From assembly GCA_028698875.1 (NCBI GenBank), contig JAQVVR010000006.1, positions 46,924-110,923 on the forward strand: a DNA stretch of 64,000 bases. The letters are read 5' to 3'. The position numbers and the translations under genes were made by a program. Source of the DNA: Candidatus Izemoplasmatales bacterium (lineage in GTDB: Bacteria; Bacillota_I; Bacilli_A; Izemoplasmatales; Hujiaoplasmataceae). Each line of letters opens with the position of its first letter. Within the stretch, counting starts at the first letter, position 1. This document shows positions 9,862-64,000 of this stretch, one piece after another. Under the pieces are notes generated by a model, which was given only the letters and a program-made list of their open reading frames with translations, did no database searches and was not told the DNA's origin.

Positions 9862-12855
<2,994 letters not shown>

Positions 12856-12864
12856 GAGGGCAAA

Positions 12865-16815: not shown

Positions 16816-16818
16816 AAT

Positions 16819-16856
16819 AAAAAAGCCGCTTCGATTTGAAGGCGGCTTCTTTTTTA
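16819..16856. terminator. Bidirectional rho-independent terminator between convergent serS and the HIT gene
   Basis: AAAAAGCCGCTTC...GAAGGCGGCTTCTTTTTT palindrome flanked by A and T runs. Confidence 0.7.
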
Positions 16857-17264
16857 GAAACAAGCTTTGATTTTTTCTTGAGTATCGAGATATTGTTGTT
16901 TCGATGTGTTTCCCATGTTATTTATAAAATCGATTTCCACGCCATCAGATGGGTAACGGGGAATCAAATGAATATGGAAATGGTATATCGTCTGTAAAGG
17001 TTTGTCAGTATTGATGAGAACAGTGAGTCCGATGGGGTTAAAAGCCTTCTTGATGGCGTTGGCAATTTTAGGAACAGTGGAAAAAACTTTACAAGCCACT
17101 TCCTCATCAATGTCATATAGATTTTGGAAATGTTGTTTGACTAAAACAATAGTATGTCCTTTTGTGGCTTGAGAAATATCGAGAATTGCTAAGACGTTTT
17201 CATCCTCGTACACCTTGTAAGCAGGAATTTCACCATTGATAATTTTGCAAAAAACACAACCCAT
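16854..17264 (-). CDS. HIT-family (histidine triad) nucleotide hydrolase
   Basis: MGCVFCKII...HFHIHLIP histidine-triad motif. Start chosen at the internal Met next to the HAD gene stop. Confidence 0.85.
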   Translation of the reverse strand: MGCVFCKIINGEIPAYKVYEDENVLAILDISQATKGHTIVLVKQHFQNLYDIDEEVACKVFSTVPKIANAIKKAFNPIGLTVLINTDKPLQTIYHFHIHLIPRYPSDGVEIDFINNMGNTSKQQYLDTQEKIKACF

Positions 17265-33740: not shown

Positions 33741-33809
33741 TGAGATGGTATTATTCAGGGGAATATGTTATAATTTATAAAGACAATCGCCCGAAAAGAG
33801 GTGCCAAAA

Positions 33810-36190: not shown

Positions 36191-37366
36191 ATGAGCGATA
36201 TCATGATTTACATCGCATTAGGAATGGGAATCGTTCTGATTGTGATGAGTACAGTCTTTTATCACAAGTTTCGAATTTGGAAATTGATATTGATTATACT
36301 TACCAGCGCTGCCTATGCATTTTTACGGTTGTTTCCAGAGATTGTGGACGTTTATATTCCCATCGATATGACAATTGAATGGTATGGGTATTATTTATTC
36401 TTAGTCGTCATTATTTTAGCTATCAATTTTAAATCAAAAATAAAAATCACCCAAAATTTAACTGATTATGACTTTTTTGAGATGGAAAAGGAACTTGACG
36501 AACTAAAATCAACTTCGGAATTATTGCGGCTTCGATACATTTCCACAATCGAATTGTTAAATGAAGGGATGCTTTTTTATAACGATACACTTGATGGTTT
36601 CTTTGCTAGCGAACAATTCGGCAGAATTACCGGAATAACAAAAAGTGATATGACTATCGATGAATATGTGACGTTGATTCATCCTGATGATCAAAACCAA
36701 TATCTGTCGACCATCAAAAAAGCAAACCGGAAAACGCCATCATTTGATATCAAATATCGCATCAGCCGCGAGGGAATATATGTCTGGGTTGAGGAAAAAG
36801 GGCGAGTTTTTGATTATGAAAAGAAATTACAAATTTTGTCATCGATTAAGGGAATAGATATCAAGTTATTCCCAGAAACCCTAATTCACGAGATTGACTC
36901 ACTTCCGACGGAACAACAACTTTTCCAATATTTATCGCAAATATCTAAAGAACCGGAGTCGTTTTATCTGATTATGATTCAATTGACCAATATTCCCGAC
37001 ATCAATTCGCGTTTTGGTCGTGATGTTGGCAATTTAATGATTGCGGAATATATTAAAAAAATGCGATTCCATTTTGCCAAGGATATCAATAGTATTTTTA
37101 GAATTACTGGTATCCAGTTTGCTTTAATCATTCGCGAACAGCGCAAATATGACGTTATGAACAGGGCTTTGCAAAGTGGTGGCGATCTAATCAATTTAAT
37201 GATTAATATTGGTGGCATCCAACAGGTCGTTTATCCTAATCTTGGGATCATTAAACACGAACCATGGTCAACCTATTCATTGTCGGAGTATGTTGGTTTT
37301 GCCAACAAAGCAATGGAAGAAGCAATTCGCAATCAAAAAAAGAATTATTCCGTTTTTGGCGAATAA
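36191..37366 (+). CDS. Membrane sensor protein: 3 TM + PAS domain + degenerate GGDEF domain
   Basis: The PAS region is LNEGMLFYNDTLDGFFASEQFGRITG. The C-terminal GGDEF-like fold has the GG(D/E)EF motif replaced by TGIQF (RITGIQFALII), so it is probably not an active c-di-GMP cyclase. Confidence 0.6.
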   Translation: MSDIMIYIALGMGIVLIVMSTVFYHKFRIWKLILIILTSAAYAFLRLFPEIVDVYIPIDMTIEWYGYYLFLVVIILAINFKSKIKITQNLTDYDFFEMEKELDELKSTSELLRLRYISTIELLNEGMLFYNDTLDGFFASEQFGRITGITKSDMTIDEYVTLIHPDDQNQYLSTIKKANRKTPSFDIKYRISREGIYVWVEEKGRVFDYEKKLQILSSIKGIDIKLFPETLIHEIDSLPTEQQLFQYLSQISKEPESFYLIMIQLTNIPDINSRFGRDVGNLMIAEYIKKMRFHFAKDINSIFRITGIQFALIIREQRKYDVMNRALQSGGDLINLMINIGGIQQVVYPNLGIIKHEPWSTYSLSEYVGFANKAMEEAIRNQKKNYSVFGE

Positions 37367-42105: not shown

Positions 42106-43548
42106 GTGAAGAAAGCTATGCTTCTTATGATTGGATTGGCATTAAGTATGATATTTATTGGCTGTACTCCTGGAGAACAAACAACGGCATCGGAATTGTC
42201 GGTTACGGAACGGGTTCAGGCGCTTCAAAACCCATATATGATTATGCTATTTATCACCGAAGACGCGACAACATCAGTTGGGATTAATTTTGAGTTGCCG
42301 ACAAATTCGGATGGTTACGTCGAGTATCGCTTATTAGGAAATTTAGAATTTGTTCGTCTCTCGGCAACGAAAAAGGCGACAACTGTTGGATCAAATTTGG
42401 TATATTTGTATGAAAAAAAGATATCTAATTTACTGCCCGATTCAATATATGAATATCGCATCGGTGGGGGAAATGATTTATATGAAAGCAACACTTATCA
42501 GTTTAAAACCGCCCAAACCAATGAAACGGAAACGGTTTTTATGTTGTTATCAGATCCACAAGGTAGCGACTCAATTGATTATATGACGTATGCAAACAAC
42601 GTGATAAGAATCAGCGAACAAGCACAAAAAAATGTCGATTTTGTGATGTTTACCGGTGACGTTGTCAACGATGATGATAGCCGGTCCCAGTGGAACCTGT
42701 TGTTCAAATACTCCTCAATATTTTCGTATAATATTCCGGTTGCCGCAACAGCAGGAAACCACGAAACGGGATCAATATTTGAGTCACAAGTTCAAAACAT
42801 CGAACTTGATGGTTACTACAATTTGCCAAATAACGGACCGACTTATAACGATTTCGATGAATTGGAAAATGACCAGCGCACCTCAACGTTTGATCAAGGT
42901 AAAACGTATAGTTTTGATTATGGATACGGTCATTTTGTCGCCATTGATACCGAATTGTTTTACGGCGACACGGGTATTAATGGTGTTGTTGATGAAGAAA
43001 ATATTGCTCTATTCAATTCTTGGTTGGTCGCTGATTTAGGGGCAAATGCAGACAAATGGATTATTGTTTATCTCCATCGCGGACCATACGCATTAACTTA
43101 TGATTCGTATAATGTCCGGCAACGGTTGACACCAATTTTTGATCAATATGGCGTTGATTTGGTCATCTCTGGACACGATCATCGTTACTCACGAGCGGTT
43201 ATCTCACAAGGGACAATGATCGATTTTACAACTGCGGACACCTATTTAAATGGTAATATTAGTTTGATATTGGATGGCGATTTCACAAGAAACTTTAATG
43301 ATTATAGTAGCGGGCTTGGAGTCACGTACTTTGTCGGAAACTCTTCGGGGACAAAGTTTTATGGTGACACAGCCGAGCCGGAAATGGCTGTCACTTATTT
43401 ATACTATGGTGAAAACGCAGTGATCCCGTTTTTTACAGTCACGGAAACCGCGATTGAAGTGGTTTCTTATCTGATTGAAAAATCAGGAAACACGGCGATT
43501 TTCCCGGATTCAATATCAATACTTGAATCGTTCATAATACGCAAATAA
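42106..43548 (+). CDS. Purple-acid-phosphatase-like metallophosphoesterase lipoprotein (extracellular phosphoesterase)
   Basis: Lipobox FIGC|TP. A PAP N-terminal Fn3-like region (YEYRIGGGN...YQFKTA). Calcineurin-like motifs GDVVND, AGNHE and GHDHRY. GTG start behind AAGGGGGAA. Confidence 0.75.
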   Translation: MKKAMLLMIGLALSMIFIGCTPGEQTTASELSVTERVQALQNPYMIMLFITEDATTSVGINFELPTNSDGYVEYRLLGNLEFVRLSATKKATTVGSNLVYLYEKKISNLLPDSIYEYRIGGGNDLYESNTYQFKTAQTNETETVFMLLSDPQGSDSIDYMTYANNVIRISEQAQKNVDFVMFTGDVVNDDDSRSQWNLLFKYSSIFSYNIPVAATAGNHETGSIFESQVQNIELDGYYNLPNNGPTYNDFDELENDQRTSTFDQGKTYSFDYGYGHFVAIDTELFYGDTGINGVVDEENIALFNSWLVADLGANADKWIIVYLHRGPYALTYDSYNVRQRLTPIFDQYGVDLVISGHDHRYSRAVISQGTMIDFTTADTYLNGNISLILDGDFTRNFNDYSSGLGVTYFVGNSSGTKFYGDTAEPEMAVTYLYYGENAVIPFFTVTETAIEVVSYLIEKSGNTAIFPDSISILESFIIRK

Positions 43549-52042: not shown

Positions 52043-52143
52043 AAAAAAACCCAAAAACAGTATTTGCGTTTTGTAATTGTATGATATAATATTACTACAA
52101 ATAGAAAACTATATTTATAATAGACATAATTGAGGTGAAAAAA

Positions 52144-52461
52144 ATGCTTTTAACAAGATTATTGGCTTTTGGTGCTGCGGATATCTTACAAACAATTCAA
52201 GATTATGTTACACAATACAAAGACATTGCCATTGGATTCCTTGGATCACAAAACATTTGGATTCAAGCCGCTATTTTAGTTGGATTGGCATTGTTTGCAA
52301 TTATCGGGTTATTTGTCTTCATTAAGAAGTTTTTTAAATTATTCATTGTACTAGGAATACTTGGAGCGGTTGGTTGGTATTTGTATACCCAAACCGACAT
52401 TATTACTAATTTACTAGACGGAATTACCGGCGCAATCCCTATTTTCTTACTAACACTATAA
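52144..52461 (+). CDS. Small hypothetical membrane protein (about 105 aa, 3 TM)
   Basis: GAGGTG RBS 6 nt before the ATG at 52144; the ORF-track start at 52135 is GTG within the RBS. Confidence 0.5.
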   Translation: MLLTRLLAFGAADILQTIQDYVTQYKDIAIGFLGSQNIWIQAAILVGLALFAIIGLFVFIKKFFKLFIVLGILGAVGWYLYTQTDIITNLLDGITGAIPIFLLTL

Positions 52462-52462: not shown

Positions 52463-52502
52463 GAGAGTGTTGCCTTTTTTCTTAGGCAAACCTCTTTTTT
52501 TT
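52463..52502 (+). terminator. Rho-independent terminator after the small membrane protein gene
   Basis: GAGTGTTGCC-TTTTTTCTTA-GGCAAACCTC followed by a T-run. Confidence 0.6.
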
Positions 52503-52569: not shown

Positions 52570-52603
52570 CTTTTGAAATTTGTATGATATAATATACCGT
52601 TAT
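52570..52603 (+). promoter_or_regulatory. Extended -10 promoter (TTGAAATTTGTATGATATAAT) for the ABC-importer/nuclease operon
   Basis: TGATATAAT at about 52584-52593. Near-identical copy at 52063-52095 upstream of the small membrane gene. Confidence 0.5.
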
Positions 52604-52628
52604 CGTGATCGAATAGGAGATGTGTAAA

Positions 52629-53708
52629 ATGGAAATAAAAATGGCCAATTTGACCAAGATTTTTATTAGTAAAGACAAAAAAGAAGTTCATGCTGTGGAT
52701 CATGTCGACTTGGTAATCCCCTCAGGAAAATTGATTGGACTGCTCGGACCTTCTGGCTGTGGCAAATCCACGACTTTGTATTTGATCGCTGGATTATTGA
52801 GGCAAACCGAAGGTGAAATCTATTTCGGAGAAGAAGAAATGTCAGAAACGCCGCCGGAAAAACGCGGTATAGGACTTGTCTTCCAAAATTATGCACTTTA
52901 TCCGCATATGACAGTCCGAGAAAATATTCTTTTTCCGTTAGAAAATTTAAAAGTGGAAAAAGAAGAGGCCAAAAAACGAACCTTTGAAATGGCAAAGTTA
53001 GTCGGCCTTGAAGAAATGCTTGACCGTAAGCCAAAAGAATTATCTGGCGGCCAGCAACAACGAGTTGCAATTGCTAGAGCTCTTGTTAAAACGCCACGAG
53101 TATTATTGTTAGATGAACCACTCTCTAATCTTGATGCACGGTTGCGATTACAAACTCGCGAAGAAATCAAACGAATTCAACGAGAAACAAAAATTACCAC
53201 GGTATTTGTGACGCACGATCAGGAAGAAGCTATGTCGATTTCTGATGAAATCGTCGTCATGAAGGACGGTATAATTCAACAAATGGGTGAGCCACAAGAG
53301 GTTTATGATAAGCCAACCAATTTATTTGTTGCCAAATTTCTTGGAAACCCACAAATCAATGTTTTTGATGGCGAAATCAAAAACAAAGAAATATTGATTG
53401 AAAACATGTTCGTTGGCAAGCGAGATTTACCGGACCAAAAAGTCTTTATCGGTGTTAGACCAGAAGGATTTATCATTGATCAAGAAAATAAATCATCATT
53501 TCATTTTAAAGTGGACCTTGTCGAGACTATCGGGCGCGATACGACTTTGATTTTTGATATGCAAGATGACTCCATAAATATCTTGGATAAAAAAACATTC
53601 AAAGCCATCATTGATGCTGGATTCCGGATTAAAGCTGGCGATGTCGTTCATTTCAATATCAAGCCAGAAAAGATGCATTTATTTGATATAAACGGAACCA
53701 TTTTGTAG
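52629..53708 (+). CDS. ABC transporter ATP-binding protein, CUT1 (MalK/UgpC-like) family with C-terminal regulatory (TOBE-like) domain
   Basis: Walker A GPSGCGKST, signature LSGGQQQRVA, Walker B LLLDEPLS, H-loop VTHD. AGGAGA RBS precedes the ATG at 52629. Confidence 0.9.
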   Translation: MEIKMANLTKIFISKDKKEVHAVDHVDLVIPSGKLIGLLGPSGCGKSTTLYLIAGLLRQTEGEIYFGEEEMSETPPEKRGIGLVFQNYALYPHMTVRENILFPLENLKVEKEEAKKRTFEMAKLVGLEEMLDRKPKELSGGQQQRVAIARALVKTPRVLLLDEPLSNLDARLRLQTREEIKRIQRETKITTVFVTHDQEEAMSISDEIVVMKDGIIQQMGEPQEVYDKPTNLFVAKFLGNPQINVFDGEIKNKEILIENMFVGKRDLPDQKVFIGVRPEGFIIDQENKSSFHFKVDLVETIGRDTTLIFDMQDDSINILDKKTFKAIIDAGFRIKAGDVVHFNIKPEKMHLFDINGTIL

Positions 53709-53717
53709 GCCATTATT

Positions 53718-54623
53718 ATGGAGAAAAAAAATAATCTAAGGGCATGGCTCTATCTGGCACCATTGCTCATTCTAATGGCGGTCTTCACTTTTTATCCGTT
53801 AATTAATGCTTTTATAGTCTCTTCATACAAAGGATATCTGCCTTTGAGCGGAACGGCCGATGAAATTGATTTCTTTTATAATTTTGGTGTAATTTTAAAA
53901 AATCCACTCTTCAAAAAGGCTGTTATTAATACCTTTATCATTGCTGGAGTATCGGTACCGGTTTCAATTCTATTATCATTACTTATTGCTGTATCACTTA
54001 AATCAATTCCAAAATTAAAAGGGTTCTTTCAAACGATCTATTTTTTGCCATATGTGACTAATACGATCGCTATCGGTATGGCATTTGCCTTTATGTTTCA
54101 CGAGGATTATGGGGTTATTAACCTGATTCTTGGCTGGTTTGGGATAAGTCCAGTCAACTGGCTGGGCGGGACAGCATCGTATGCCGCTCAAATGATTGCC
54201 TTACTAATCCTGACGATTTGGAATGGATTGGCTTTTAAAATCTTAGTATTCACAAGCGGACTAGAAAATATTGATAAGCAGTATTACGATGCGGCAAAAA
54301 TCGATTCGGCATCGAAATGGACGGTTTTCAAACGCATTACCGTTCCTTTGTTATCTCCGCTTATTCTTTACATCTCAATCACATCAGTTATCGGAGCCTT
54401 AAAAGCATATAACTCCGTTGTTGGCTTATTCGGCGATGTAAAATTGGGAGCACAAAACAACTCAATGATTACCATTGTTGCTTTTGTATATCAATATAAA
54501 GACGGATACACCGATAAAGGCTATATCAGTTACGCCGCCGCTGCATCAATTATCCTTTTCTTCATAACGGCTGTCATTTCCATTCTTCAAACAGTCGTAA
54601 GTAAGAAAAGGGTCCACTATTAG
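53718..54623 (+). CDS. ABC transporter permease (UgpA/MalF-like, 6 TM)
   Basis: EAA-loop region (YYDAAKIDSASKWTVFKRITVPL) and 6 TM. Confidence 0.85.
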   Translation: MEKKNNLRAWLYLAPLLILMAVFTFYPLINAFIVSSYKGYLPLSGTADEIDFFYNFGVILKNPLFKKAVINTFIIAGVSVPVSILLSLLIAVSLKSIPKLKGFFQTIYFLPYVTNTIAIGMAFAFMFHEDYGVINLILGWFGISPVNWLGGTASYAAQMIALLILTIWNGLAFKILVFTSGLENIDKQYYDAAKIDSASKWTVFKRITVPLLSPLILYISITSVIGALKAYNSVVGLFGDVKLGAQNNSMITIVAFVYQYKDGYTDKGYISYAAAASIILFFITAVISILQTVVSKKRVHY

Positions 54624-54632
54624 GGGGTGATG

Positions 54633-55568
54633 ACAATGGCAGACATTTATGTATCAAATGTAAAAGCGTATAAAGCCAAAAAAATTGCTTCCAATGTTTT
54701 ACTCTACGCTTTTTTAGTAATAGTAGCGCTTACTATTTTACTCCCTTTCTATTGGATGATTCTTTCATCATTGAAATCAACAGTTCAAATTGAACAGGTT
54801 CCACCGATTCTGCTAATGGCACCATCGGATTGGAAAATTACAAATTACACTGATTTGTTTGTTTTGGTTCAATCGGGACAACGAGCCGGTGAACCATTGT
54901 TTCCTTTCTTCACCTATATGAAAAACACCGTTGTGGTTTCAATTATCACAACAATTGGAACGACAATCACAACGGTTTTGGCAGCTTTCGCTTTTGCAAG
55001 ATTGAACTTCAAAGGGCGGGACATATTATTTGCAATTCTACTAGGCACGATGATGGTTCCGGGAGAGATTTTCATTCTTACAAACTTTGTGACAGTTTAT
55101 CGGCTTGGGTGGTACAGTATTTCAAACCAAACATATTTAGACGTGCTGTTGGCAATGACCATCCCCTTTATGACCAGCGTCTTTTATATTTTCTATTTGC
55201 GGCAGACCTTTAAACAAATTCCCAACGAATTATATTATGCCGCTAAAGTCGATGGAACAACAGACTTTAAATATCTTTTAAAAGTCATGATTCCAATTGC
55301 TTTACCAACCATTATCACGATTATCATTTTAAATTCCATGGGCGCGTGGAGCGCATATATCTGGCCGGCATTGATTTCTTGTAAAGACGAATACCGTCTT
55401 GTCAGCAACGGGTTGCGCGGCGCCTTCACCGACACTTCAACGGGGCGGACTGACTATGGTCAACAAATGGCCGCTTCGGTTCTGGTCACGCTGCCACTTC
55501 TTATTTTATTTTTTGCGTTTAGAAAACAGATTATGCGCGGGGTATCCCGTAGCGGCATCAAGGGATAA
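54633..55568 (+). CDS. ABC transporter permease (UgpE/MalG-like, 6 TM)
   Basis: EAA-like loop (YYAAKVDGTTDFKYLLKVMIPIALP). Start chosen at the second ATG after GGGGGTG. Confidence 0.85.
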   Translation, partial: TMADIYVSNVKAYKAKKIASNVLLYAFLVIVALTILLPFYWMILSSLKSTVQIEQVPPILLMAPSDWKITNYTDLFVLVQSGQRAGEPLFPFFTYMKNTVVVSIITTIGTTITTVLAAFAFARLNFKGRDILFAILLGTMMVPGEIFILTNFVTVYRLGWYSISNQTYLDVLLAMTIPFMTSVFYIFYLRQTFKQIPNELYYAAKVDGTTDFKYLLKVMIPIALPTIITIIILNSMGAWSAYIWPALISCKDEYRLVSNGLRGAFTDTSTGRTDYGQQMAASVLVTLPLLILFFAFRKQIMRGVSRSGIKG

Positions 55569-55620
55569 TTCATTCATTTTGAGTATAAAATAAAATTAAT
55601 AGATATTTTAGGAGGAAAAA

Positions 55621-57249
55621 ATGAAAAAATTGCTTTTGAGTTTTGTCACGTTGTTTTTAACATTTGGTATTCTTGGATGCGTCACGGTCGGGACGACCGG
55701 AGAGTATGTTTATGTACCTGAAGTTATGCTTACTGAACTGCCTACCGAAGATGTTGAAGTTACTTTTTGGCATATTTATGGGGAAGGAAAAACCGCTGTT
55801 TTGGATACATTGATTGCTGAGTTTGAAGCGATGTTTCCTAATGTTACTATTACGGGCACTTCCCAAAGCGACTATACAACATTAAGATCTAAAATCAATG
55901 TTGGCGTTTCTGTTGGCGAAGTCCCAACGATGGCGCTTGGTTATCCCGATCATTATGCGGGTTATGTCAACGCTCACGCGGCCGTTGGACTAGATCCTTA
56001 TATTAACAACACCATTGAATACACCGTGGATAATCCTTTGTCTTCAATTAATGGACAAACGATTACAACATCAATTGACTTAACGGACTTTGTTCCATCA
56101 TATCTTGCCGAAAACAATCAATATGTTGGCGGATATTATTTCTCGGTCCCATTCTCTAAGTCAACTGAAGTAATGGCCGTTAACCGTACGGTATTGAAAC
56201 AACACATTACTGAAATTCGGGCTTTAGGAATTACGATTTCTGATAACGGCTTTTTATCACACACGGTCCCGCTAACATACGCACAATTGGAAGCTTTGAC
56301 CGCAATTCTTGTCAACACTAGCGGAACCGATGTGGCTGCGTACAAATGCCAATTCTTGATGAATTATGATTCCAATGCCAATTTGTTCATCAATATGAGC
56401 CGCCAATGGAACGCGCCTTATACTAACTCGGCTGGTGATATTTTGATTGACAACGATATCAGCAGAAACATGCTAAAGTACATCAACGGTTTGTTCGGAA
56501 CCAACACATTAGTTTTACCAACCGAATGGACCCAATCATATGGATCAACCAATTTCATATATGGCGATGTTTGTATGACCGTTGGATCATCTGCTGGTTA
56601 TAGCTACAACGTTCCTACTTCAGAATATAAAGCCAACCTATTAAAATTTGGAATTTTTGATGTTGACTTTGTTCAAGTTCCACAAATGGTTTTAACCGAT
56701 GCAACAGACGTTGCTGTTACCGTTGACAATGCGGCTGTAACTGTAAATGGCGACTTATCAGCTGTTCAACAAGGACCAAACATCGGAATTTTTGCGAATG
56801 CAACGAGGGCCGAAAAACTGTATGCTTGGCTTTTCATAAAATATTTAATCGAAGCTGACAACACGGCATGGTGGGCTATGAGTACTGGTTATCTGCCGGC
56901 AAGACTATCAGCATTTACATCGGATGTTCCTATCGCAATGACAGGTACATACTCAGTAACTTATTCTAATTTCTTGCAAATCGCTCAAGACTATTGGGCT
57001 GCTGATGGCGACGTTGATTGGCTTACTACCGATGAAAGATGGGATTATCTATACTCATCAATGGCGGCTAATATTGCCAAAAATCAAAACGATTTCTATG
57101 AATATGATCCCGCTTTCTCTGCTGGAGACAATAGTGCAGGATCAGCTACGGCTCGTGAAGAAGCAGGAAACTGTTTAGATGATATTTATAATGGTACGTT
57201 TTCACCAACTGATTCTTTAAATAATATGAAGAGTCTATTAACCTGGTAG
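55621..57249 (+). CDS. ABC transporter substrate-binding lipoprotein (solute-binding family 1, unusually long at 542 aa)
   Basis: Lipobox ILGC|VT, Trp/Tyr-rich periplasmic-binding-protein-like sequence. Directly follows the permeases. Confidence 0.8.
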   Translation: MKKLLLSFVTLFLTFGILGCVTVGTTGEYVYVPEVMLTELPTEDVEVTFWHIYGEGKTAVLDTLIAEFEAMFPNVTITGTSQSDYTTLRSKINVGVSVGEVPTMALGYPDHYAGYVNAHAAVGLDPYINNTIEYTVDNPLSSINGQTITTSIDLTDFVPSYLAENNQYVGGYYFSVPFSKSTEVMAVNRTVLKQHITEIRALGITISDNGFLSHTVPLTYAQLEALTAILVNTSGTDVAAYKCQFLMNYDSNANLFINMSRQWNAPYTNSAGDILIDNDISRNMLKYINGLFGTNTLVLPTEWTQSYGSTNFIYGDVCMTVGSSAGYSYNVPTSEYKANLLKFGIFDVDFVQVPQMVLTDATDVAVTVDNAAVTVNGDLSAVQQGPNIGIFANATRAEKLYAWLFIKYLIEADNTAWWAMSTGYLPARLSAFTSDVPIAMTGTYSVTYSNFLQIAQDYWAADGDVDWLTTDERWDYLYSSMAANIAKNQNDFYEYDPAFSAGDNSAGSATAREEAGNCLDDIYNGTFSPTDSLNNMKSLLTW

Positions 57250-57271
57250 TTTTTCAAAGGAAGGGTTATTC

Positions 57272-58711
57272 ATGCTAAAAAAAATCTTTAGTGCAATGCT
57301 TGGCTTCTTGTTGGTTTTTGTGCTTATCGGCTGTCAGCCAACAGAGGTGGCCTTGCCAGATTTAACCGGGAAGTCACGTGCGCAAATTACGGAAACGCTC
57401 GAAGGACTTAATTTATCAATCAAATATTACTTTGATCTTTCAGTAATTTACGACGAAGAATCCGATTATGATAAATTTGTCCGTTATGGAAAAGACGAAA
57501 ATTCAGTGCAATTGGCTGTTGGTGATATTGTCGCTACCAAAACGGAAATCAAAGTATATACTACGCCACTTAATATAACAATTAACTATCTTTATTCGTT
57601 AAGCGATGCACTATCTTTACACGAAAGTGATTATACAGGGAAAGAATTCATCGCTGATGGTATCGGTGAAGTCACAATTTCCAAACTGGTTGATGGTGAT
57701 ACCACTTTTTTCCAAAGCGACGGGCAATCATATTCGGTCCGCTATCTAGGTATTGACACGCCAGAATCAACCGCTTTGTATCAAGCTTGGGGTAAAGCGG
57801 CCGCCACATATACCGCTGAAAAATTACAATCAGCCGAGAAAATCGTGTTGGAAGCCGAAGGCGATCGTCAAGACGGTAATGACCGTTATCTCGCTTGGGT
57901 TTGGTACCTTCCTGAGGGCGGCGATAAGTTCTTGTTATTGAATTTAGAACTTGTCGAATTAGCTTATTCAAAAAACAAAGTCTCAACTGGTAGTGTTTAT
58001 TCAGATGTTTTAACTTTGGCTGACTGGAATGCTTCCGCAACTAAACGGCGAGTGTGGGGAGAAATTGATCCTAATTACGATTATAGTAAAGAGGGCACCC
58101 AGATGACGATTGCGTTTTTAATGGAAAACTTCGCCGATTATATGGGCTTAAAGGTTGCCATTTCGGGAATTGTCACGGCCAAAATTGGCAATAGTGTTTA
58201 TCTTCAAGATGAATCAGGAGCGGGAATTTACATGTATGCCGGATATACCTCTTCATCCCAACTGCAGATAGGGGCGCATGTGGCAATTGATGGATTAACG
58301 CCAACAGTTTATAGTGGGAGTCCGCAACTAACCAATTTCAACCGGCTTAACCTATCTTTGGTGACCGAATCTTTGATAATTACACCGGAAGTAATCACTT
58401 ACGACGATTTTATTTTCACTAATATTGGCAAATATGTGACGATGAACCAGTTAACCGTCACTGGTGTCAATACTGCGAGAACAAGCATCTATGTTACCGA
58501 TATCGAAGACCATGAGTTTGTTATTAGAATTGATGACAGCACTGGTTTTGATGCGGACGATTTAGGCGTTACCGTTGGTCAAGTGTTAACTGTTACTGGT
58601 CCTCTCGGATATTATGACTATGATTACAATAATGTATTTGAGGGATATAATCACGCACCAAGTAAATTTCAGTTAATGCTCACAGCTAGCGACAACATAA
58701 TTATTGAGTAA
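57272..58711 (+). CDS. Thermonuclease (staphylococcal-nuclease-like, SNase) lipoprotein with C-terminal OB-like domain
   Basis: Lipobox LIGC|QP. SNase core VRYLGIDTPE...DRYLAWVWY retaining Ca-binding and catalytic Arg/Glu positions. The C-terminal VYLQDESGAGIYMY...GAHVAIDG module is shared with the next gene. Confidence 0.8.
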   Translation: MLKKIFSAMLGFLLVFVLIGCQPTEVALPDLTGKSRAQITETLEGLNLSIKYYFDLSVIYDEESDYDKFVRYGKDENSVQLAVGDIVATKTEIKVYTTPLNITINYLYSLSDALSLHESDYTGKEFIADGIGEVTISKLVDGDTTFFQSDGQSYSVRYLGIDTPESTALYQAWGKAAATYTAEKLQSAEKIVLEAEGDRQDGNDRYLAWVWYLPEGGDKFLLLNLELVELAYSKNKVSTGSVYSDVLTLADWNASATKRRVWGEIDPNYDYSKEGTQMTIAFLMENFADYMGLKVAISGIVTAKIGNSVYLQDESGAGIYMYAGYTSSSQLQIGAHVAIDGLTPTVYSGSPQLTNFNRLNLSLVTESLIITPEVITYDDFIFTNIGKYVTMNQLTVTGVNTARTSIYVTDIEDHEFVIRIDDSTGFDADDLGVTVGQVLTVTGPLGYYDYDYNNVFEGYNHAPSKFQLMLTASDNIIIE

Positions 58712-58737
58712 TAAAATTATTAAATAGGAGGAAATGT

Positions 58738-61700
58738 ATGAAACTGATTTTAAAGAAATTTGCTTTACTGGGTCTTCTTTTAACAGCAATCTTTACGGTC
58801 GTAGCTTGTACGCCCGAAGATACATCCGAACAGATGATCTTACTTAACAATGCGTCGGCAGCTATCATTATTGATGGTCAAGACAACATTCAAGGTAATT
58901 TCACTCTACCTGGAACTGTCGGAGGTGCAACAATAACATGGGTGGCGGCAAATCCGACCATTATTGTTATCCCTGCAACCACAAACGCTAACGGATTCTA
59001 TGAAGTCGTTGTCAATCGGCCACAAATAGCTGATGGCGGCGTCGACACATCTGTCGTTTTGACCGCAACACTAACTTATGACGAAGTTTCAATTACCGCC
59101 ACAAGAACAGTCCGAGTCAAAGCTCAAGAACCATCAGAAACTTACACCTCTTTTGCTCTTTTATATGCTGGAGCAACATCTGGTGATACTGTTGAAGTCC
59201 AAGGAATCGTCTATGCAAAATATGCAGCGGGCTATTTCATTATGGATACAGCAGGAATCGGATTAGGTATTTTTACAACCACAGCCAACGCCGCTTTAGT
59301 CGACTATGGTGACATGGTTACGCTCACTGGTGAATATTCGTATTACAACTCATTATTCCAAGTCAAAAATCTTACTTCTCAAGTTATTGACAGCAGTGAT
59401 AATGACTATACAGTCACACCAACGGTTTTGACAGATCCTGCCGATTTGATTGACGTTGACTCAACTGTCAAAGCCAATCACGGCAAAATCTATACCATTA
59501 CTGTAACGCCAACATTGGTTGCATCGGGTGCTTATTTTAATCTTTATTTATACGATGGAACCACGATGATCGCTCGGGTTTATTATAATTCGACCGCCTC
59601 ATCATTAGCAGCATTAACGGAAATGGTAGGAAAACTTGTTACGATTGATGTTGTCTACTATTGTTGGTACAGTGGCAAAGAAGTCTTAGTTGCTTTCGAT
59701 GGCACAGCTGATGATATTCACGAAATCATTTTGACGGAAACGGAAAAACAGACAGCCGATATGAATAATATTTCGGTTATGTTAACCGCTTTGTCAGAAG
59801 GAACCGCAACCCTTCCAGCCGCAGGCGCATATGGATCAACGATTACATGGTCGGTTATTTCCGGGGGGGCAACAATTGCCGATGGAGTTGTCACATATCC
59901 CACTGTTGGTGCCGGTGCTGAGCCAGTTGATGTTGTGTTAGAAGCAACAATTTCCCGCACTGGTTTGACCGATGTGACCAAACAATTTACCATTGAAGTC
60001 AGTCCAATTGATCCAATTACCGTTGGAGCAGTTATGGATTTAATTCAAGCACTGGGAACCGCTTCAAACTCAATTAATGGCGAAGCTGTCTTGATGCAAG
60101 GTACAATCATCGGATTTAAATGGAAATATGAATTTGCTAAATATCAAGGTATGTACGTTACCGACGGAACCGATGTCGTCTTTGTATACATGGAATTTGA
60201 TATAGATGATTATGCTATTGGCGATGTCGTTATGCTTAACGGAACATACTGCACTTATTATTACTTGCCAGAATTCAAAGATGTTACTTTCCAAGCAAAA
60301 GTCGCAGATGCTACGGCAGACGAATTTACTCCACTTGAATTAACGATTGCTGAGATTTATGATTATACCAATATTACTACTCCATATTATAATCAACAAA
60401 TCACAGTAACAGGAACTTTAGTCATTGGAACAAAAGATTCTGAATCCTGGATTATTGATGGCGAAGGAAACAAACTTGTCTTCTCATATCTAGTTCCAAA
60501 CTATACAACAACTGATCTGTTGGATCTAAACGGTATGCAAGTTACCTTCACCGGATTCTTGAATGATTACCATTCAACATATGGGTGGAGAATCACTGGT
60601 GCTAACGCTGTTTTCGAGAATGCACCATTATCAGGACAAGAAGCTCTTGATGCTGATTATGCAAGTTTGTTGATTCCGCTAGAGGCTTTGTCGGAAACAA
60701 CGTATACACTCCCTGTTATCGGTGGATATGATACTGTTATTACCTGGGCGGTTATTTCTGGCGGCGCGACACTAAATGTTGCTGGAAACGTTGTAACTTA
60801 TCCGGCAGTTGCAGAAGGCGTAGATCCAGTTAATGTTGTTCTTGAAGCAACTTTGACATTAGGCGAACTGACACCGATGACAAAACAATTTACTGTAGTT
60901 GTCAGCCCAATTGTTACTATTACTGTTGGCGATGTTATCGATTTGGTTCACGAATTAGGAACAGCATCAAATAGCATTACTGGCGAAATCGTTATCGTTG
61001 AAGGCACCATTGTTGGGCTTAAATGGAAATCGGGCTTCACACAATATCAAGGCATTTATCTATCTGATGGAACCGATGTAATTTTTGTCTATTATGTATT
61101 CAATCCTGGCGATTTTGAAGTCGGTGATTTCATCAATGTGAGAGGTACATATTGCACGTATTATTACTTGCCGGAACTCTCCTCAGTTACTTTCATTGAG
61201 GTAGATGAAAGCGGTACACCAGCAACATATACCCCACAAGAATTGACAATTGAAGAAATTTACAATTACACTAATATTACTACCCCGTATTACAATCAAC
61301 AAATCACTGTTACCGGAACCTTAGTTATTGGTACCAGCGATTCAACTTCATGGATTATTGATGGAGACGGAAACAAACTTGTCTTCTCATATATCGAATC
61401 TGACTATACTACAACTGATTTGCTAGCTTTGAATGGTAAAGAAGTAATTGCCACATTCTTCCTAAATGATTTTCATTCCACACTGGGATGGAGAGTCACT
61501 GGTGATGGCGCAACATTTGTTAGAACACCAGAACAATTGATTATCGATGATATCGCCGAACTTCTTGCTTTAATCAATACTTCCGTTGTCGGCGGCGATA
61601 CACAATTGTTACCAACTGTTGGAACCAATGGCACGACTGTCATTTGGACCGAAGTTAGTGATTATGCTAATATCGCTGATGGCACGATTACCTATTCTGA

Positions 61701-63741
61701 AGTCGCTGAAAGCACCAATGTTGTCTTAACGGGTGAATTTGGCTTCTTAGTTGGTGGCGAAGCCGCAAGAACTTATCGGACTATCACCGTTGTCGTCTCC
61801 ACTTGGGAACAAAAATTAACTGCTGACTTAGCAGAAATCGTTGATCTTGAAGCGGATGAATTTGATGTTATCAATCTTCCAACCGAAGGTACCAATGGTT
61901 CAGCTATCACTTGGGCATTCACTGCCGAGACAGTCAATACCGACGCAACATTAGTTGACAACGTTTTGACTCTGAAGTACAAAGGTGAAGCCTATACCAT
62001 TCATCTGACAGCAACTCTGACAGTTAGTGTGTTAGATCCAGTTACCAAAGACATCGTTGTTAATGTTACGGCCTTAACATTGGTCTTTAACGACATCGCT
62101 GATGGTAATATGAAAACTGATGGCGTTTGGAATGTTCCGAACGGAACAGTAGTTACTTACCGTGGCGTTGTTACTGGATTCTATTATACAAGCGGAACCT
62201 TCATTCAGGATTCCAATGGCAACGGAATGTACTGCTATCATCTTTATAATGCTGAACTAGCAGTCGGCGATGAAATCATCGTTACCGGTACTCTCAAAGA
62301 ATACAATGGTGTTAGAGAACTTGATCCTGTAACCCTAGTTGGCGTCATTAGTTCAGAAAATGAACTATCATATATTACTATGACTCCAGCAGAAGTTGCG
62401 GCGATGGTTTCAACTTATTACGAATATCAAGGACAACTTACAACAGTTACCGGATTAATTGTTGATCACTATTCTGGAACCTATATTTATGTGGATTGGG
62501 CTACTGTTGGAGAAACCCCATATTATCTCTCCTTTAAGTTCCCGACATGGTGGACGGAAGTATATGAGGCTGGAGACACATTACCAGAACTATCGTTTGT
62601 CTTCTATAACATTTTTAATGTAACGACATACAATCTTTGGAACGTTACTTATCCAGCAATGACTGATGAACAAAAATTAGCGGTTGATGTGGATCAATTA
62701 CCGATTACATCAGTTGAAAATCCACTTGAATTGAGTGCTGATTATATTTTACCATTACCAAAATATTGCACATATGATACAATTTCCCCAGCAGTATCGG
62801 AAGGATTAGAAGTTTACGTTACTGGTTATGACACACTCACTCGTACCTTCTTTGTTACTCTTCCGGATGCAGCCGATTTCACAGGAGAGATTACAATTAC
62901 GGTCACTCTAAACGAAACGTTATCACAAGAAGTCATCATTTATGTTAAAATCAAAATGTTGACGGAACAACAAAAACTTGACGCTGCTTTAGCAAAACTT
63001 CCTAGCAATATGTCATTAACCTCTGGATACACACTATCTGCGTTAGATTACAGTGCTGTATACGGAACTGTTGATTACTCGGCAGGACTGGACACTTATT
63101 TATCTAACGTAGCGAACGCTTTCACAGTTCTATCTCGGCCTATAATTGGAGCTGCGGATGTAACAGGTACCATCACTGTTCATGCAACCCTTGGTGAGGC
63201 GACAGGAAGTGTCGTTATTAATGTAATTATTCGAGCATATGCAGCCGATTTAATCATTTCTGAATATATTGAAGGTTCTTCAAATAACAAAGCAATTGAA
63301 ATTTATAACGGAACTAACGCAACGATCATTCTTACAGGATATAAACTTGTTCTTTTCACAAATGGCAGTTCCACAGCAGGAAATACCTATAACTTTGCTG
63401 AAGGAACAACGTTAGCTCCAGGTGAATGCTTCGTTATTGCAAATTCAAGTGCAAATGCAACTATTCTTGCGGCTGCCGATGCTACTAGTACCGTATGTTA
63501 CTTTAATGGTGATGATGCTGTTGTCTTATATAATGGGGACACAGTAATTGACAGTTTTGGAGATGTTGGTTTTGACCCGGGAACTGAATGGGATGGCTCG
63601 ACAGCTGACAATACTCTTGTAAAAATTGGAATTGCATCTGATACAACAGTAGATGATGATTTTATACCTACCGCTTTATGGACGGTATATCCAGTTGATA
63701 CACTAACATATCTTGGTTGGCACGAAAATTATGCTTGGTAG
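58738..63741 (+). CDS. Giant surface lipoprotein (1667 aa): multiple Ig-like and OB-like repeat modules and a C-terminal lamin-tail domain (LTD)
   Basis: Lipobox VVAC|TP. At least 5 Ig-like units with G..ITW...ISGGA...VTYP...V.LTAT motifs. Four or more copies of the a-x-D-x-x-G-x-G-a-Y...GD.V.V.GT..EY.G..EL OB-like motif. An ~0.9-kb internal tandem duplication. C-terminal LTD signature ISEYIEGSSNNKAIEIYNGT...LTGYKL. Confidence 0.85.
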   Translation: MKLILKKFALLGLLLTAIFTVVACTPEDTSEQMILLNNASAAIIIDGQDNIQGNFTLPGTVGGATITWVAANPTIIVIPATTNANGFYEVVVNRPQIADGGVDTSVVLTATLTYDEVSITATRTVRVKAQEPSETYTSFALLYAGATSGDTVEVQGIVYAKYAAGYFIMDTAGIGLGIFTTTANAALVDYGDMVTLTGEYSYYNSLFQVKNLTSQVIDSSDNDYTVTPTVLTDPADLIDVDSTVKANHGKIYTITVTPTLVASGAYFNLYLYDGTTMIARVYYNSTASSLAALTEMVGKLVTIDVVYYCWYSGKEVLVAFDGTADDIHEIILTETEKQTADMNNISVMLTALSEGTATLPAAGAYGSTITWSVISGGATIADGVVTYPTVGAGAEPVDVVLEATISRTGLTDVTKQFTIEVSPIDPITVGAVMDLIQALGTASNSINGEAVLMQGTIIGFKWKYEFAKYQGMYVTDGTDVVFVYMEFDIDDYAIGDVVMLNGTYCTYYYLPEFKDVTFQAKVADATADEFTPLELTIAEIYDYTNITTPYYNQQITVTGTLVIGTKDSESWIIDGEGNKLVFSYLVPNYTTTDLLDLNGMQVTFTGFLNDYHSTYGWRITGANAVFENAPLSGQEALDADYASLLIPLEALSETTYTLPVIGGYDTVITWAVISGGATLNVAGNVVTYPAVAEGVDPVNVVLEATLTLGELTPMTKQFTVVVSPIVTITVGDVIDLVHELGTASNSITGEIVIVEGTIVGLKWKSGFTQYQGIYLSDGTDVIFVYYVFNPGDFEVGDFINVRGTYCTYYYLPELSSVTFIEVDESGTPATYTPQELTIEEIYNYTNITTPYYNQQITVTGTLVIGTSDSTSWIIDGDGNKLVFSYIESDYTTTDLLALNGKEVIATFFLNDFHSTLGWRVTGDGATFVRTPEQLIIDDIAELLALINTSVVGGDTQLLPTVGTNGTTVIWTEVSDYANIADGTITYSEVAESTNVVLTGEFGFLVGGEAARTYRTITVVVSTWEQKLTADLAEIVDLEADEFDVINLPTEGTNGSAITWAFTAETVNTDATLVDNVLTLKYKGEAYTIHLTATLTVSVLDPVTKDIVVNVTALTLVFNDIADGNMKTDGVWNVPNGTVVTYRGVVTGFYYTSGTFIQDSNGNGMYCYHLYNAELAVGDEIIVTGTLKEYNGVRELDPVTLVGVISSENELSYITMTPAEVAAMVSTYYEYQGQLTTVTGLIVDHYSGTYIYVDWATVGETPYYLSFKFPTWWTEVYEAGDTLPELSFVFYNIFNVTTYNLWNVTYPAMTDEQKLAVDVDQLPITSVENPLELSADYILPLPKYCTYDTISPAVSEGLEVYVTGYDTLTRTFFVTLPDAADFTGEITITVTLNETLSQEVIIYVKIKMLTEQQKLDAALAKLPSNMSLTSGYTLSALDYSAVYGTVDYSAGLDTYLSNVANAFTVLSRPIIGAADVTGTITVHATLGEATGSVVINVIIRAYAADLIISEYIEGSSNNKAIEIYNGTNATIILTGYKLVLFTNGSSTAGNTYNFAEGTTLAPGECFVIANSSANATILAAADATSTVCYFNGDDAVVLYNGDTVIDSFGDVGFDPGTEWDGSTADNTLVKIGIASDTTVDDDFIPTALWTVYPVDTLTYLGWHENYAW

Positions 63742-63773: not shown

Positions 63774-63803
63774 GCAAAAGGCACGGGAAACTGTGCCTTT
63801 TCA
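63774..63803 (+). terminator. Rho-independent terminator after the giant lipoprotein gene
   Basis: AAAGGCACGGGAAACTGTGCCTTTTC. Confidence 0.75.
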
Positions 63804-63962: not shown

Positions 63963-64000
63963 ATGAGAATAAAGAAATTATTAGTTTTAGCTTTGAGTTT
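63963..64000 (+). CDS. 5' end of a further secreted/lipoprotein gene (signal peptide MRIKKLLVLALS..., truncated by window)
   Basis: ATG at 63963 preceded by an AT-rich promoter-like region; only 12 codons are visible. Confidence 0.3.
   Translation, partial: MRIKKLLVLALS

Follow-up and report, generated by a model that had tools for sequence, protein, structure and literature searches.

A putative nucleic-acid feeding operon of a Candidatus Izemoplasmatales bacterium combines surface nuclease machinery with a CUT1-type ABC importer

The 'DNA-degradation loci' of Ca. Izemoplasmatales were described by Wasmund et al. (2021, Nat Microbiol; PMC8289736), and such a locus is also present in Xianfuyuplasma coldseepsis zrk13 (PMC8397711) and Hujiaoplasma nucleasis zrk29 (PMC10470597). 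Common to these systems is the idea of surface nucleases acting together with an importer, in which a large LTD/OB protein was proposed to hold DNA at the cell (PMC8289736 and its supplement). In cultured isolates of the Izemoplasma group, addition of nucleic acid raised the expression of genes of such loci (PMC8397711; PMC10470597); in a cultured relative, added genomic DNA induced genes belonging to a cluster of this type (PMC8397711), and in X. coldseepsis zrk13 a gene of the cluster, annotated 'DNA degradation protein EddB', rose approximately 20-fold with DNA (PMC8397711). The operons of mycoplasmas are similar in that surface SNase and predicted sugar-type solute-binding protein (SBP) lipoproteins adjoin UgpC/A/E-like ABC transporters, for which import of nucleic-acid precursors has been proposed. 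Examples are Mpn133 of M. pneumoniae with its adjacent ABC operon, Mhp379 of M. hyopneumoniae and MG186-189 of M. genitalium. In M. agalactiae, co-transcription links P80 (MAG_5030, a predicted sugar SBP) with the SNase MAG_5040 and the ABC genes MAG_5050-5070, and the nuclease was proposed to feed the importer (PMC3585158; PMC9740415), which documents for this species the Mollicutes parallel drawn in the original prediction for the locus analysed here.

In the 64,000-nucleotide stretch of DNA analysed (the window), six genes, all on the + strand, occupy positions 52629-63741, with intergenic gaps of 9, 3, 52, 22 and 26 nt according to ORF analysis. Their products are a UgpC/MalK (CUT1) type ABC ATPase (52629-53708; ABC_tran 3.3e-37, top NCBIfam match UgpC), a UgpA/MalF-like permease (53718-54623; BPD_transp_1, top NCBIfam match UgpA), a UgpE/MalG-like permease (54627-55568; BPD_transp_1, top NCBIfam match UgpE) and three lipoproteins, namely an SBP (55621-57249; 542 aa, SBP_bac_8 9.4e-22), an SNase (57272-58711; 479 aa) and a 1667-aa protein (58738-63741), all three exported proteins displaying a lipobox (ILGC with C20, LIGC with C21 and VVAC with C24, respectively). 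The ATPase ORF opens at 52620 with its first ATG, but the spacing to the AGGAG ribosome-binding site is better for 52629, which is the preferred start; homologues align from residue 4. Gene positions, spacing and orientation agree with the original prediction, as do the Pfam and NCBIfam matches of the ATPase and permeases and the assignment of the SBP and the thermonuclease as lipoproteins.

Two terminator-like hairpins on the + strand bracket the six genes: the first (52470-52489) ends an upstream unit of small ORFs and forms the upstream boundary of the operon, and the second (63776-63801), with 11 pairs followed by a T-run 3' of the large gene, forms the downstream boundary of the six-gene unit, within which no convincing internal terminator-like hairpin was found. 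Approximately 30 nt upstream of the ATPase ribosome-binding site lies the promoter-like element TGTATGATATAAT (52581-52593, + strand), an extended -10 (TGnTATAAT) of presumed function; a second exact copy at 52078-52090 stands ahead of a small ORF at 52135, two exact copies being observed where 0.17 are expected by chance. The operon structure is backed by the tight spacing, the ribosome-binding sites, the flanking terminators and the lipoboxes, and the six genes are likely to be co-transcribed. Further downstream, an ORF on the + strand (63963-64000) with a signal-peptide-like N-terminus, MRIKKLLVLALS, runs off the end of the window; its place is taken in the closest relatives by a second LTD lipoprotein of approximately 650 aa, followed by two NrnA-like genes. 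The window also encodes, 9 kb upstream, a purple-acid-phosphatase-like phosphoesterase lipoprotein.

The six genes follow the order common to the Izemoplasmatales loci (dnaX-ybaB-recR, ATPase, two permeases, SBP, SNase, large OB/LTD protein), to which they are homologous. In Ca. I. acidinucleici (L058) the 'large protein' of Wasmund et al. is found at the same position, yet it comprises 1049 aa, against 1667 aa with four double-OB modules here; for the 1049-aa protein an 'endonuclease I' domain has been reported, which was not reproduced by Pfam at E <= 0.001. The order of the mycoplasma operons is different, being SBP-SNase-ATPase-permeases instead of ATPase-permeases-SBP-SNase, and a large OB/LTD protein has not been reported there. 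On the side of similarity, 37 of 40 SBP family members match the NCBIfam model 'P68 family surface lipoprotein' (best 2e-14). Among 80 related loci from Izemoplasmatales, Acholeplasma-like lineages and Haloplasma, all independently assembled and gathered via SNase, so that the conservation figures are conditional on this gene, the order ATPase-permease-permease-SBP-SNase is kept in 64. Since this order recurs even though SNase identity drops to 35-40% across the loci retaining it, the arrangement lies far beyond chance. In addition, a large or LTD protein directly follows the SNase in 54 of the 56 loci with enough sequence. The six genes stay together in several orders of wall-less Bacilli.

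Past the point at which this window ends, the cluster is followed in relatives by two cytoplasmic NrnA-like phosphoesterases of the DHH/DHHA1 type and by a Na/Pi-PhoU transporter. Of 37 loci whose sequence extends far enough, 34 have NrnA-like genes downstream, the products of which match NCBIfam NrnA (1e-60 to 1e-72) and are devoid of a signal peptide; the Na/Pi-PhoU transporter is present in many relatives, and in L058 a response regulator comes after it. RNA turnover in general may be the role of the NrnA-like genes, and their transcription may be separate from that of the six-gene unit.

The nuclease lipoprotein contains a PASTA-like N-terminal domain, an SNase catalytic domain (57662-58057, aa 131-262; PF00565, 32.2 bits, gathering score 21) and one double-OB module (58109-58636, aa 280-455; 90-109 bits against the module profiles and a weak DUF5689 match). 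Residues D143, R157, D162, T163, E165 and R205 correspond to D21, R35, D40, T41, E43 and R87 of staphylococcal nuclease, of which D21, R35, D40, E43 and R87 are invariant among 23 homologues and T41 is either Thr or Ala; judged by these residues, the active site is intact. The products of SNase (EC 3.1.31.1) are short and carry 3'-phosphate ends, mono- and dinucleotides included. In Bacillus subtilis, the surface protein YhcR likewise joins OB folds and an SNase domain, and additionally has a 5'-nucleotidase domain and is anchored to the cell wall (see also the supplement of PMC8289736). In contrast, the product of the gene at 57272 lacks a 5'-nucleotidase domain, has a lipid anchor in place of a sortase-dependent one, and is paired with an ABC importer.

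The 1667-aa lipoprotein is built from Ig-like spacers, four double-OB modules of approximately 190 aa each and a C-terminal LTD (63241-63561, aa 1502-1608), the latter well above threshold (PF00932, 68 bits, gathering score 34.3). The Ig-like domains are of the aBig_2 type and number approximately seven (aa 46-130, 357-422, 655-723, approximately 960-1030 and 1044-1111, plus two repeats at 1336-1496 that are aBig-like). The modules, all placed by local profiles, are X1 (59140-59727, aa 135-330), X2 (60064-60672, aa 443-645), X3 (60967-61557, aa 744-940) and X4 (62110-62718, aa 1125-1327). No catalytic domain was detected in this protein, in which no single unassigned stretch exceeds approximately 60 aa. 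The module profile is detected four times here and once in the SNase, whose double-OB module is homologous to these four, and it also matches the N-terminus of a solved EEP nuclease. In the structure model of aa 131-335 (X1; pLDDT 95.6) two OB barrels are visible, and the first half of X4 gives a match at the N-terminal end of the nuclease model for ExeM/NucH (NF033681, 2.1e-12, aa 1142-1217). Each module is thus taken to be a pair of OB folds, giving a predicted eight in the large protein. The original prediction of OB repeats and a lamin tail is borne out for the LTD and, through local profiles and the structure model, for the repeats, although the latter have no significant match in Pfam.

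The ExeM/NucH/Xds nucleases of Shewanella, Aeromonas and Vibrio share with the large protein an LTD and a YhcR-like OB pair, and its LTD plus C-terminal tail resemble the N-terminal LTD region of ExeM (NCBIfam ExeM model, 4.3e-28). Nevertheless, it has neither an EEP catalytic domain nor space for one, it carries four copies of the OB pair and has its LTD at the C-terminus instead of the N-terminus, and catalysis would be supplied by the separate SNase protein. Nuclease activity of ExeM depends on the corresponding two-OB region, while its LTD is dispensable for DNA degradation (PMC6085458). This dispensability, the many Ig-like spacers and the very fast evolution of the large protein, of which only 19 homologues were recovered by word-index search, would suit a protein acting mainly as an adhesin or matrix binder that anchors the cell to eDNA-rich biofilm or detritus. 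We regard this as very improbable, given that the repeated module is also fused to the SNase, that the protein stands directly after the SNase in nearly all loci, that the DNA-induced EddB gene of zrk13 is a candidate counterpart, and that the LTD is able to move within the gene cluster: in L082/L083 it is located on the SBP and was not found by Pfam on the large protein, a case of domain shuffling. The favored role is that of a partner of the nuclease and importer that would hold their substrate, with the OB modules and the LTD as putative nucleic-acid binders.

The pairing of a CUT1-type transporter with nucleases had been called functionally unexplained, and the SBP now offers a candidate explanation. 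This protein falls in the UgpB/U3GBP branch of CUT1 SBPs, and its family profile, searched against the PDB, ranks first the dinucleotide (U3G)-binding protein of Thermus thermophilus (PDB 7C0F series; 6e-47), followed by UgpB of E. coli (1e-38) and of M. tuberculosis (7e-29), with sugar binders at 1e-21 or weaker. Likewise, all 25 top Foldseek matches of the SBP model (pLDDT 91.8) are the Thermus protein (target-normalised TM 0.81-0.84), its closest solved relative, UgpB structures being second here too. Identity between the two is 18-19%, and the window SBP is a lipoprotein with approximately 140 extra residues. Candidate ligand residues Y85, Y108, D110, S181, Y307, S323, Y329 and Q384 are the counterparts of those mutated in the Thermus crystal series; five of them are unchanged and three conservatively replaced, and across the 68 SBPs of such clusters every position is retained in 65-68. 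The Thermus protein was reportedly described by Chandravanshi et al. (2021, FEBS J; PMID 33599038); U3G is said to be an endogenous ligand acquired during expression, and the physiological role of the protein is reportedly unsettled, the title of the paper mentioning a moonlighting function. We know of no nuclease context for the Thermus protein, and the 3'-phosphates of SNase products contrast with U3G. Taken together, by sequence and model the SBP looks built for dinucleotides.

A conventional importer of the Ugp type for sn-glycerol-3-phosphate or glycerophosphodiesters, with nuclease neighbors merely sharing a phosphate-scavenging island, would agree with the UgpC, UgpA and UgpE names of the three transporter subunits, with the second rank of UgpB, with the match of 37 of 40 SBP family members to the NCBIfam UgpB model, and with the Na/Pi-PhoU transporter downstream in many relatives and the response regulator of L058. 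Nevertheless, all scores are far under the curated UgpB/A/C/E cut-offs, the dinucleotide binder outranks UgpB in both profile and fold searches, and the SBP gene keeps its SNase neighbor even in highly divergent genomes. Moreover, the glycerol-clamping Trp pair of E. coli UgpB aligns to D250/A253, which is a lead only. This explanation is accordingly considered quite unlikely.

Wasmund et al. favored 'probable nucleoside or nucleobase transporters' from neighborhood evidence, charged nucleotides being unable to pass membranes unaided (PMC8289736); the same surface machinery would then be followed by complete extracellular dephosphorylation, for which the purple-acid-phosphatase-like lipoprotein could be invoked. 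Against this, the nearest relatives of the SBP in sequence and fold bind phosphate esters (U3G, G3P, GPC), the U3GBP contact residues are conserved, and the conserved cluster contains no 5'-nucleotidase but two cytoplasmic nanoRNase-like genes. Nucleoside binders of the P48 kind are BMP-family proteins. P48 itself, the characterised mycoplasma nucleoside SBP, is a different lipoprotein (PMC12892991). Import of nucleosides or nucleobases is therefore judged unlikely; the dinucleotide-like SBP and the NrnA-like and Na/Pi genes of the relatives argue for dinucleotides or short oligonucleotides instead.

We hypothesize that the operon probably serves extracellular nucleic-acid feeding at the surface of a wall-less cell. 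The eight OB folds on Ig-like spacers, together with the LTD, would keep polymeric DNA or RNA at the membrane, where the SNase lipoprotein would cut them into short 3'-phosphate products including mono- and dinucleotides; the SBP, from the phosphate-ester branch of CUT1 binders, may then capture dinucleotides or very short oligonucleotides for import by the UgpA/UgpE-like permeases and the UgpC-like ATPase, NrnA-like phosphoesterases would finish their breakdown to mononucleotides, and the Na/Pi-PhoU transporter would handle phosphate. We infer these biochemical steps, the SBP ligand included, from the features above. The capture and import reading is supported by domain content and conserved order, and it is not new, because the locus is homologous to the published one of Ca. 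I. acidinucleici: loci of this kind have been known in the Izemoplasmatales clade since 2021 (PMC8289736). What goes beyond the literature searched is the dinucleotide-type relationship of the SBP, and the presence of two NrnA-like nanoRNases and a Na/Pi transporter after the cluster in relatives.

The six genes at 52629-63741 look like a single operon, because the gaps between them are tight, Shine-Dalgarno-like motifs precede most of their starts, hairpins flank the unit and a -10-like element lies in front of it. The genes encoding the ATPase (52620/52629-53708), the two permeases (53718-54623 and 54627-55568), the solute-binding protein or SBP (55621-57249), the staphylococcal-type nuclease or SNase (57272-58711) and a 1667-aa protein (58738-63741) are all read from the + strand and separated by 9, 3, 52, 22 and 26 nt, as described in the original prediction of six co-directional, tightly spaced genes (gaps of 3-52 nt). 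The AGGAG motif upstream of the first gene is better placed for the ATG at 52629 than for that at 52620, which favors the ATPase start proposed there. A terminator-like hairpin at 52470-52489 (+) ends the preceding small ORF, a strong one at 63776-63801 (+) follows the last gene of the unit, and a hairpin scan of the + strand between the two detected no notable terminator-like hairpin. The extended -10-like element TGTATGATATAAT at 52581-52593 (+) has an exact twin 503 nt away, at 52078-52090 (+), ahead of the small ORF at 52135 (2 exact copies versus 0.17 expected by chance); a scan with a consensus promoter was uninformative (47 sites versus 42.7 expected). This small ORF (52135-52461, +), found between recR and the operon, encodes a hydrophobic 108-aa product with no Pfam match, and ORFs of similar size occupy the corresponding place in relatives (4818-5132 in locus L005 and 2171-2488 in locus L082). 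Upstream of the operon are the housekeeping genes mnmE, dnaX, ybaB and recR, and the remainder of the window, with a yidC-like gene, mfd, recF, gyrB, gyrA and serS, looks origin-proximal. It also holds a 786-aa ORF (33801-36161, +) that has no Pfam match at E <= 1e-5 and bears an N-terminal dinucleotide-binding-like motif, VVVVGNDIGS, and downstream of it a PAS-GGDEF protein, a putative diguanylate cyclase (36191-37366, +).

Profile searches are consistent with a CUT1-type ABC importer (TC 3.A.1.1) made up of a MalK/UgpC-type ATPase, two UgpA/E-like permeases and a family-1 SBP. The ATPase matches ABC_tran in Pfam (3.3e-37) and its best NCBIfam name is UgpC (6e-109), followed by GlcV, every NCBIfam match being below the curated cut-off; likewise, its matches to TOBE_2 and OB_MalK are weak and below their cut-offs. 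Both permeases match BPD_transp_1, with UgpA and UgpE as the nearest NCBIfam models, and the SBP matches SBP_bac_8 in Pfam and is a lipoprotein by its lipobox, ILGC. The SNase, also a lipoprotein (lipobox LIGC), reaches 32.2 bits against PF00565, for which the gathering score is 21, and its residues D143, R157, D162, T163, E165 and R205 correspond to D21, R35, D40, T41, E43 and R87 of staphylococcal nuclease. With the exception of T163, which is Thr or Ala, these active-site residues are invariant in 23 homologues, and by profile the protein belongs to the staphylococcal nuclease family, with its Ca2+-binding and catalytic residues intact. Its sequence shows 100% identity to that of a protein of a 'Candidatus Izemoplasmatales bacterium' MAG. 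The identities first proposed for these genes, namely a MalK/UgpC-type ATPase, two UgpA/UgpE-type permeases, a lipoprotein SBP and a thermonuclease lipoprotein, are borne out by these matches.

The system of the window is a further member of a published type of locus and not a new kind. The Izemoplasmatales DNA-degradation loci described by Wasmund et al. in 2021 encode several extracellular nucleases, ABC transporters, phosphohydrolases and phosphate transporters, together with a 1049-aa protein carrying OB (YhcR-like) and lamin-tail domains, which was proposed to keep DNA close to the cell (PMC8289736). The window shares with them a nuclease gene beside ABC genes and a large secreted protein with OB and lamin-tail domains. 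In locus L058, of Ca. Izemoplasma acidinucleici, dnaX-ybaB-recR, the ABC genes, the SBP and the SNase are followed by an ORF of 1049 aa (11941-15090), equal to the published length; by this ORF and by an order common to both, the window locus is a homologue of the published one. In Pfam, the 1049-aa protein displays aBig_2, a lamin-tail domain (LTD) and a weak S1-like match, but at E <= 0.001 no Endonuclease_1 or other nuclease domain, so the CDD-based assignment to endonuclease I in the 2021 supplement was not reproduced. Induction by, or growth on, extracellular DNA is documented for cultured relatives: in Xianfuyuplasma coldseepsis zrk13, genes of such a cluster are up-regulated on added genomic DNA, one of them, annotated 'EddB', approximately 20-fold (PMC8397711), an annotation quoted as published and implying no correspondence to any particular gene of the window. 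The parallel originally drawn with Mollicutes in which an SNase lipoprotein lies beside ugpC/A/E-like ABC genes is documented in M. agalactiae, where the SNase MAG_5040 and the ABC genes MAG_5050-5070 are transcribed together with P80, a predicted sugar SBP; this arrangement is conserved in the hominis group (PMC3585158). In the model proposed for mycoplasmas, the nuclease would supply the importer (PMC3585158; reviewed in PMC9740415). Compared by published description, the window likewise has SNase and SBP lipoproteins adjoining UgpC/A/E-like ABC genes. The reading of the locus as a surface module for nucleic-acid degradation and import, put forward in the original prediction, is supported, for a system already published as a locus type, and we consider it probable.

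An SNase alignment was used to scan one genome per species and yielded 80 loci, whose six-frame ORFs were compared with the six window proteins. The order permease, permease, SBP, SNase is that of the window in 64 of the 80, and a large or LTD protein directly follows the SNase in 54 of the 56 loci with enough sequence. The hosts are Izemoplasmatales (including Ca. Izimaplasma HR2 and ZiA1), Acholeplasma, Mariniplasma, Paracholeplasma, Liberiplasma, Haloplasma contractile and unclassified Mycoplasmatota, with SNase identity down to 35-40%. Eight loci from gut-derived Bacilli and 'Mollicutes' MAGs (L074-L081) have neither adjacent ABC genes nor a large OB/LTD protein, and their short proteins (~270 aa) match the query over its first ~270-310 residues only, which comprise the N-terminal domain and the SNase. 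On longer contigs of relatives the cluster is extended by either another LTD lipoprotein or another SNase, a tandem pair of DHH/DHHA1 genes lies downstream (34/37 loci with enough sequence) and, in many cases, a Na/Pi cotransporter-PhoU gene comes after this pair; the window ends 259 nt past the large gene, and the DHH and Na/Pi findings come from relatives. Their DHH proteins match the NCBIfam model of NrnA, the bifunctional oligoribonuclease/pAp phosphatase, at 1e-60 to 1e-72, below its cut-off, and no signal peptide was found at their N-termini. In M. bovis, a tandem NrnA-like pair is required for growth with host cells, and NMPs or nucleosides rescue the defect (PMC7373297). At the end of the window a further ORF, whose start (MRIKKLLVLALS) is signal-peptide-like, opens at 63963 (+) and is truncated at 64000; in the closest relatives its position is taken by a ~650-aa LTD lipoprotein similar to the N-terminal and the C-terminal part of the large protein, and two NrnA-like genes come next. 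In L082 a protein with an Endonuclease_1 (PF04231) and a Big_3 domain is encoded just downstream of the gene module (15794-16933, -), an example of the extra secreted nucleases gathering at these loci. Within the window, 9 kb upstream of the operon, a 480-aa lipoprotein (42106-43548, +; lipobox FIGC) with purple-acid-phosphatase N-terminal and calcineurin-like phosphoesterase domains may act on nuclease products outside the cell, as a phosphatase or phosphodiesterase.

What goes beyond the published picture concerns the SBP. A profile of its family, built from 40 sequences and run against all PDB sequences, placed the 7C0F series at the top (6e-47), followed by E. coli UgpB (1e-38), M. tuberculosis UgpB (7e-29) and sugar binders at 1e-21 or weaker. 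The titles of this series describe the Thermus thermophilus protein U3GBP as 'a dinucleotide-binding protein of ABC transporter endogenously bound to uridylyl-3'-5'-phospho-guanosine'. Likewise, in a Foldseek search with the AlphaFold model of the SBP (pLDDT 91.8) the top 25 matches are all the 7C0F-series protein, at a target-normalised TM of 0.81-0.84, and UgpB proteins that bind G3P and GPC come next. In the alignment, U3GBP residues Y56, F79, N81, S127, Y224, T240, Y246 and Q274, to which a contact role is ascribed from the mutant titles of PDB entries, correspond to Y85, Y108, D110, S181, Y307, S323, Y329 and Q384 of the SBP; five are identical and three conservative (F to Y, N to D and T to S), and each of these candidate ligand residues is retained in 65-68 of 68 SBPs from related loci. 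By sequence and modeled structure the SBP is thus nearest to 7C0F, with the putative ligand-contact residues kept, and fits the U3GBP type. U3GBP, UgpB and the GPC binder have been grouped in one phosphate-ester branch of CUT1 (PNAS 2025, PMC12718374). A Ugp-type importer of glycerophosphoesters inside a phosphate-scavenging island was also considered, for which the second-ranked UgpB matches and the Na/Pi cotransporter genes of relatives speak. The SBP, on the other hand, scores 16 bits against the UgpB family model, whose curated cut-off is 411, and we regard this alternative as quite improbable. In an hhalign alignment, to be taken as a lead only, the Trp pair that clamps the glycerol moiety in UgpB (PMC12718374) falls opposite D250/A253. 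A match to the NCBIfam model 'P68 family surface lipoprotein' (lipo_P68) in 37 of the 40 family members, the best at 2e-14 and below the cut-off of 200, may link the SBP family, indirectly, to mycoplasma lipoproteins. P48, the mycoplasma nucleoside-binding lipoprotein, was rejected as a homologue of the SBP: it is another lipoprotein, served by a transporter of its own, and P80 appears in the P48 paper solely as loading control (PMC12892991).

Digestion by SNase yields 3'-phosphomono- and dinucleotides. Taken together, a U3GBP-like SBP, these products and the NrnA-like pair of relatives lead us to predict, at close to even chances, that the cargo consists of dinucleotides or very short oligonucleotides and not of nucleosides. 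Import of nucleosides or nucleobases corresponds to the published guess for these systems, termed 'probable nucleoside or nucleobase transporters' (PMC8289736), and we consider it unlikely next to the resemblance of the SBP to a dinucleotide binder. Within a limited corpus, no paper was found that links U3GBP to nucleases or Mollicutes, or that proposes dinucleotide import for such SNase-linked transporters.

The large protein, a lipoprotein by its lipobox VVAC, contains aBig_2 Ig-like domains and a C-terminal LTD (PF00932, 68 bits, gathering score 34.3). Local profiles built from related loci reveal a module of ~190 aa present four times in it (aa 135-330, 443-645, 744-940 and 1125-1327) and a single time in the SNase, in its C-terminal half (aa 280-455), all copies at 90-215 bits, with aBig_2 domains between the modules and two aBig-like repeats ahead of the LTD. 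The structure model of the first module (pLDDT 95.6) consists of two five-stranded barrels, and its best Foldseek matches are the tandem-OB DNA binders POT1, HIN-200 and Oxytricha TEBP. The module profile matches the N-terminus of a solved EEP nuclease (1.4e-5), DUF5689 is matched by 11 of 37 module sequences, and the fourth module resembles the N-terminal part of the ExeM/NucH model. When the large protein was searched in Pfam as ten sub-segments, no OB match reached significance (tRNA_anti-like 0.34, tRNA_anti-codon 0.074), and for this reason the OB assignment is based on local profiles and the structure model; of the lipoprotein with OB repeats and a lamin-tail domain foreseen in the original prediction, the LTD is confirmed in Pfam and the repeats by profiles and model, but not at significance in Pfam. 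A phmmer search of the large protein against PDB sequences returned nothing, and BLAST self-comparison with default filters detected no internal repeats, although profile searches revealed them. Elsewhere in the window, no additional copy of the OB module, LTD, SNase or DHH genes is present. An LTD and a YhcR-like OB pair are common to the large protein and the extracellular nucleases ExeM/NucH, whereas the EEP catalytic domain is absent from it, with no EEP match and the whole protein tiled by other domains, and so it is not a member of that group. In ExeM the corresponding two-OB region is essential for activity and the LTD is dispensable, its role being unknown (PMC6085458). A hidden catalytic domain was considered and rejected, since aBig_2, OB-pair and LTD units cover the entire protein and Pfam detected no nuclease domain in its 1049-aa homologue. 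Given the OB modules, the likeness to ExeM and the lack of any stretch left for catalysis, it is a putative multivalent, non-catalytic nucleic-acid binder, resembling ExeM minus its nuclease domain and with the OB pair amplified; that this lipoprotein, Ig-like domains included, is mainly an adhesin seems very improbable. In L082 and L083 the 742-aa SBP (P0162; 5641-7869 and 4604-6832, respectively) bears an LTD at aa 544-645, and in their large neighbor protein (1375 aa) Pfam finds aBig_2 domains only and no LTD. The LTD has moved between proteins of the same gene module, a shuffling that ties it to the module as a whole.

In the model that we regard as best supported, the OB/LTD array of the large lipoprotein would capture nucleic acid, the OB-tagged SNase would cleave the captured polymer, and the SBP would bind products of dinucleotide size for ATP-driven import by the ABC system; relatives would finish the process with nanoRNases in the cytoplasm and a phosphate transporter. 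In its widest form, which we put forward tentatively and at somewhat less than even chances, the SNase-linked CUT1 system is a dedicated importer of dinucleotides or nano-oligonucleotides whose cargo is finished by a cytoplasmic NrnA-type pair, an ancestral nucleotide-acquisition chain of wall-less Bacilli that has persisted from the free-living lineages of Izemoplasma, Acholeplasma and Haloplasma to pathogenic mycoplasmas. What remains new is the dinucleotide-type SBP, the sharing of a double-OB module and the conservation of the nanoRNase pair, which together offer a directly testable answer to the cargo of the 'sugar-type' transporter beside Mollicutes nucleases. Extracellular DNA is a major pool of phosphorus, nitrogen and carbon in sediments, with Izemoplasmatales among its identified consumers, and related mycoplasmas, unable to make nucleotides, depend during infection on a nuclease-plus-ABC unit of this kind. 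Loci of this type were already published, but the form in which material crosses the membrane had stayed vague, and the link to a dinucleotide SBP and the conserved nanoRNase pair make it a simple bench question. If true, the chain of importer and nanoRNases would provide the first physiological context for U3G-type binding proteins and define in which chemical form nucleic-acid precursors enter Mollicutes, the transporter and the nanoRNases would become defined targets in pathogenic Mollicutes, and the model of DNA foraging would shift from degradation to nucleosides outside the cell to the import of short oligonucleotides.
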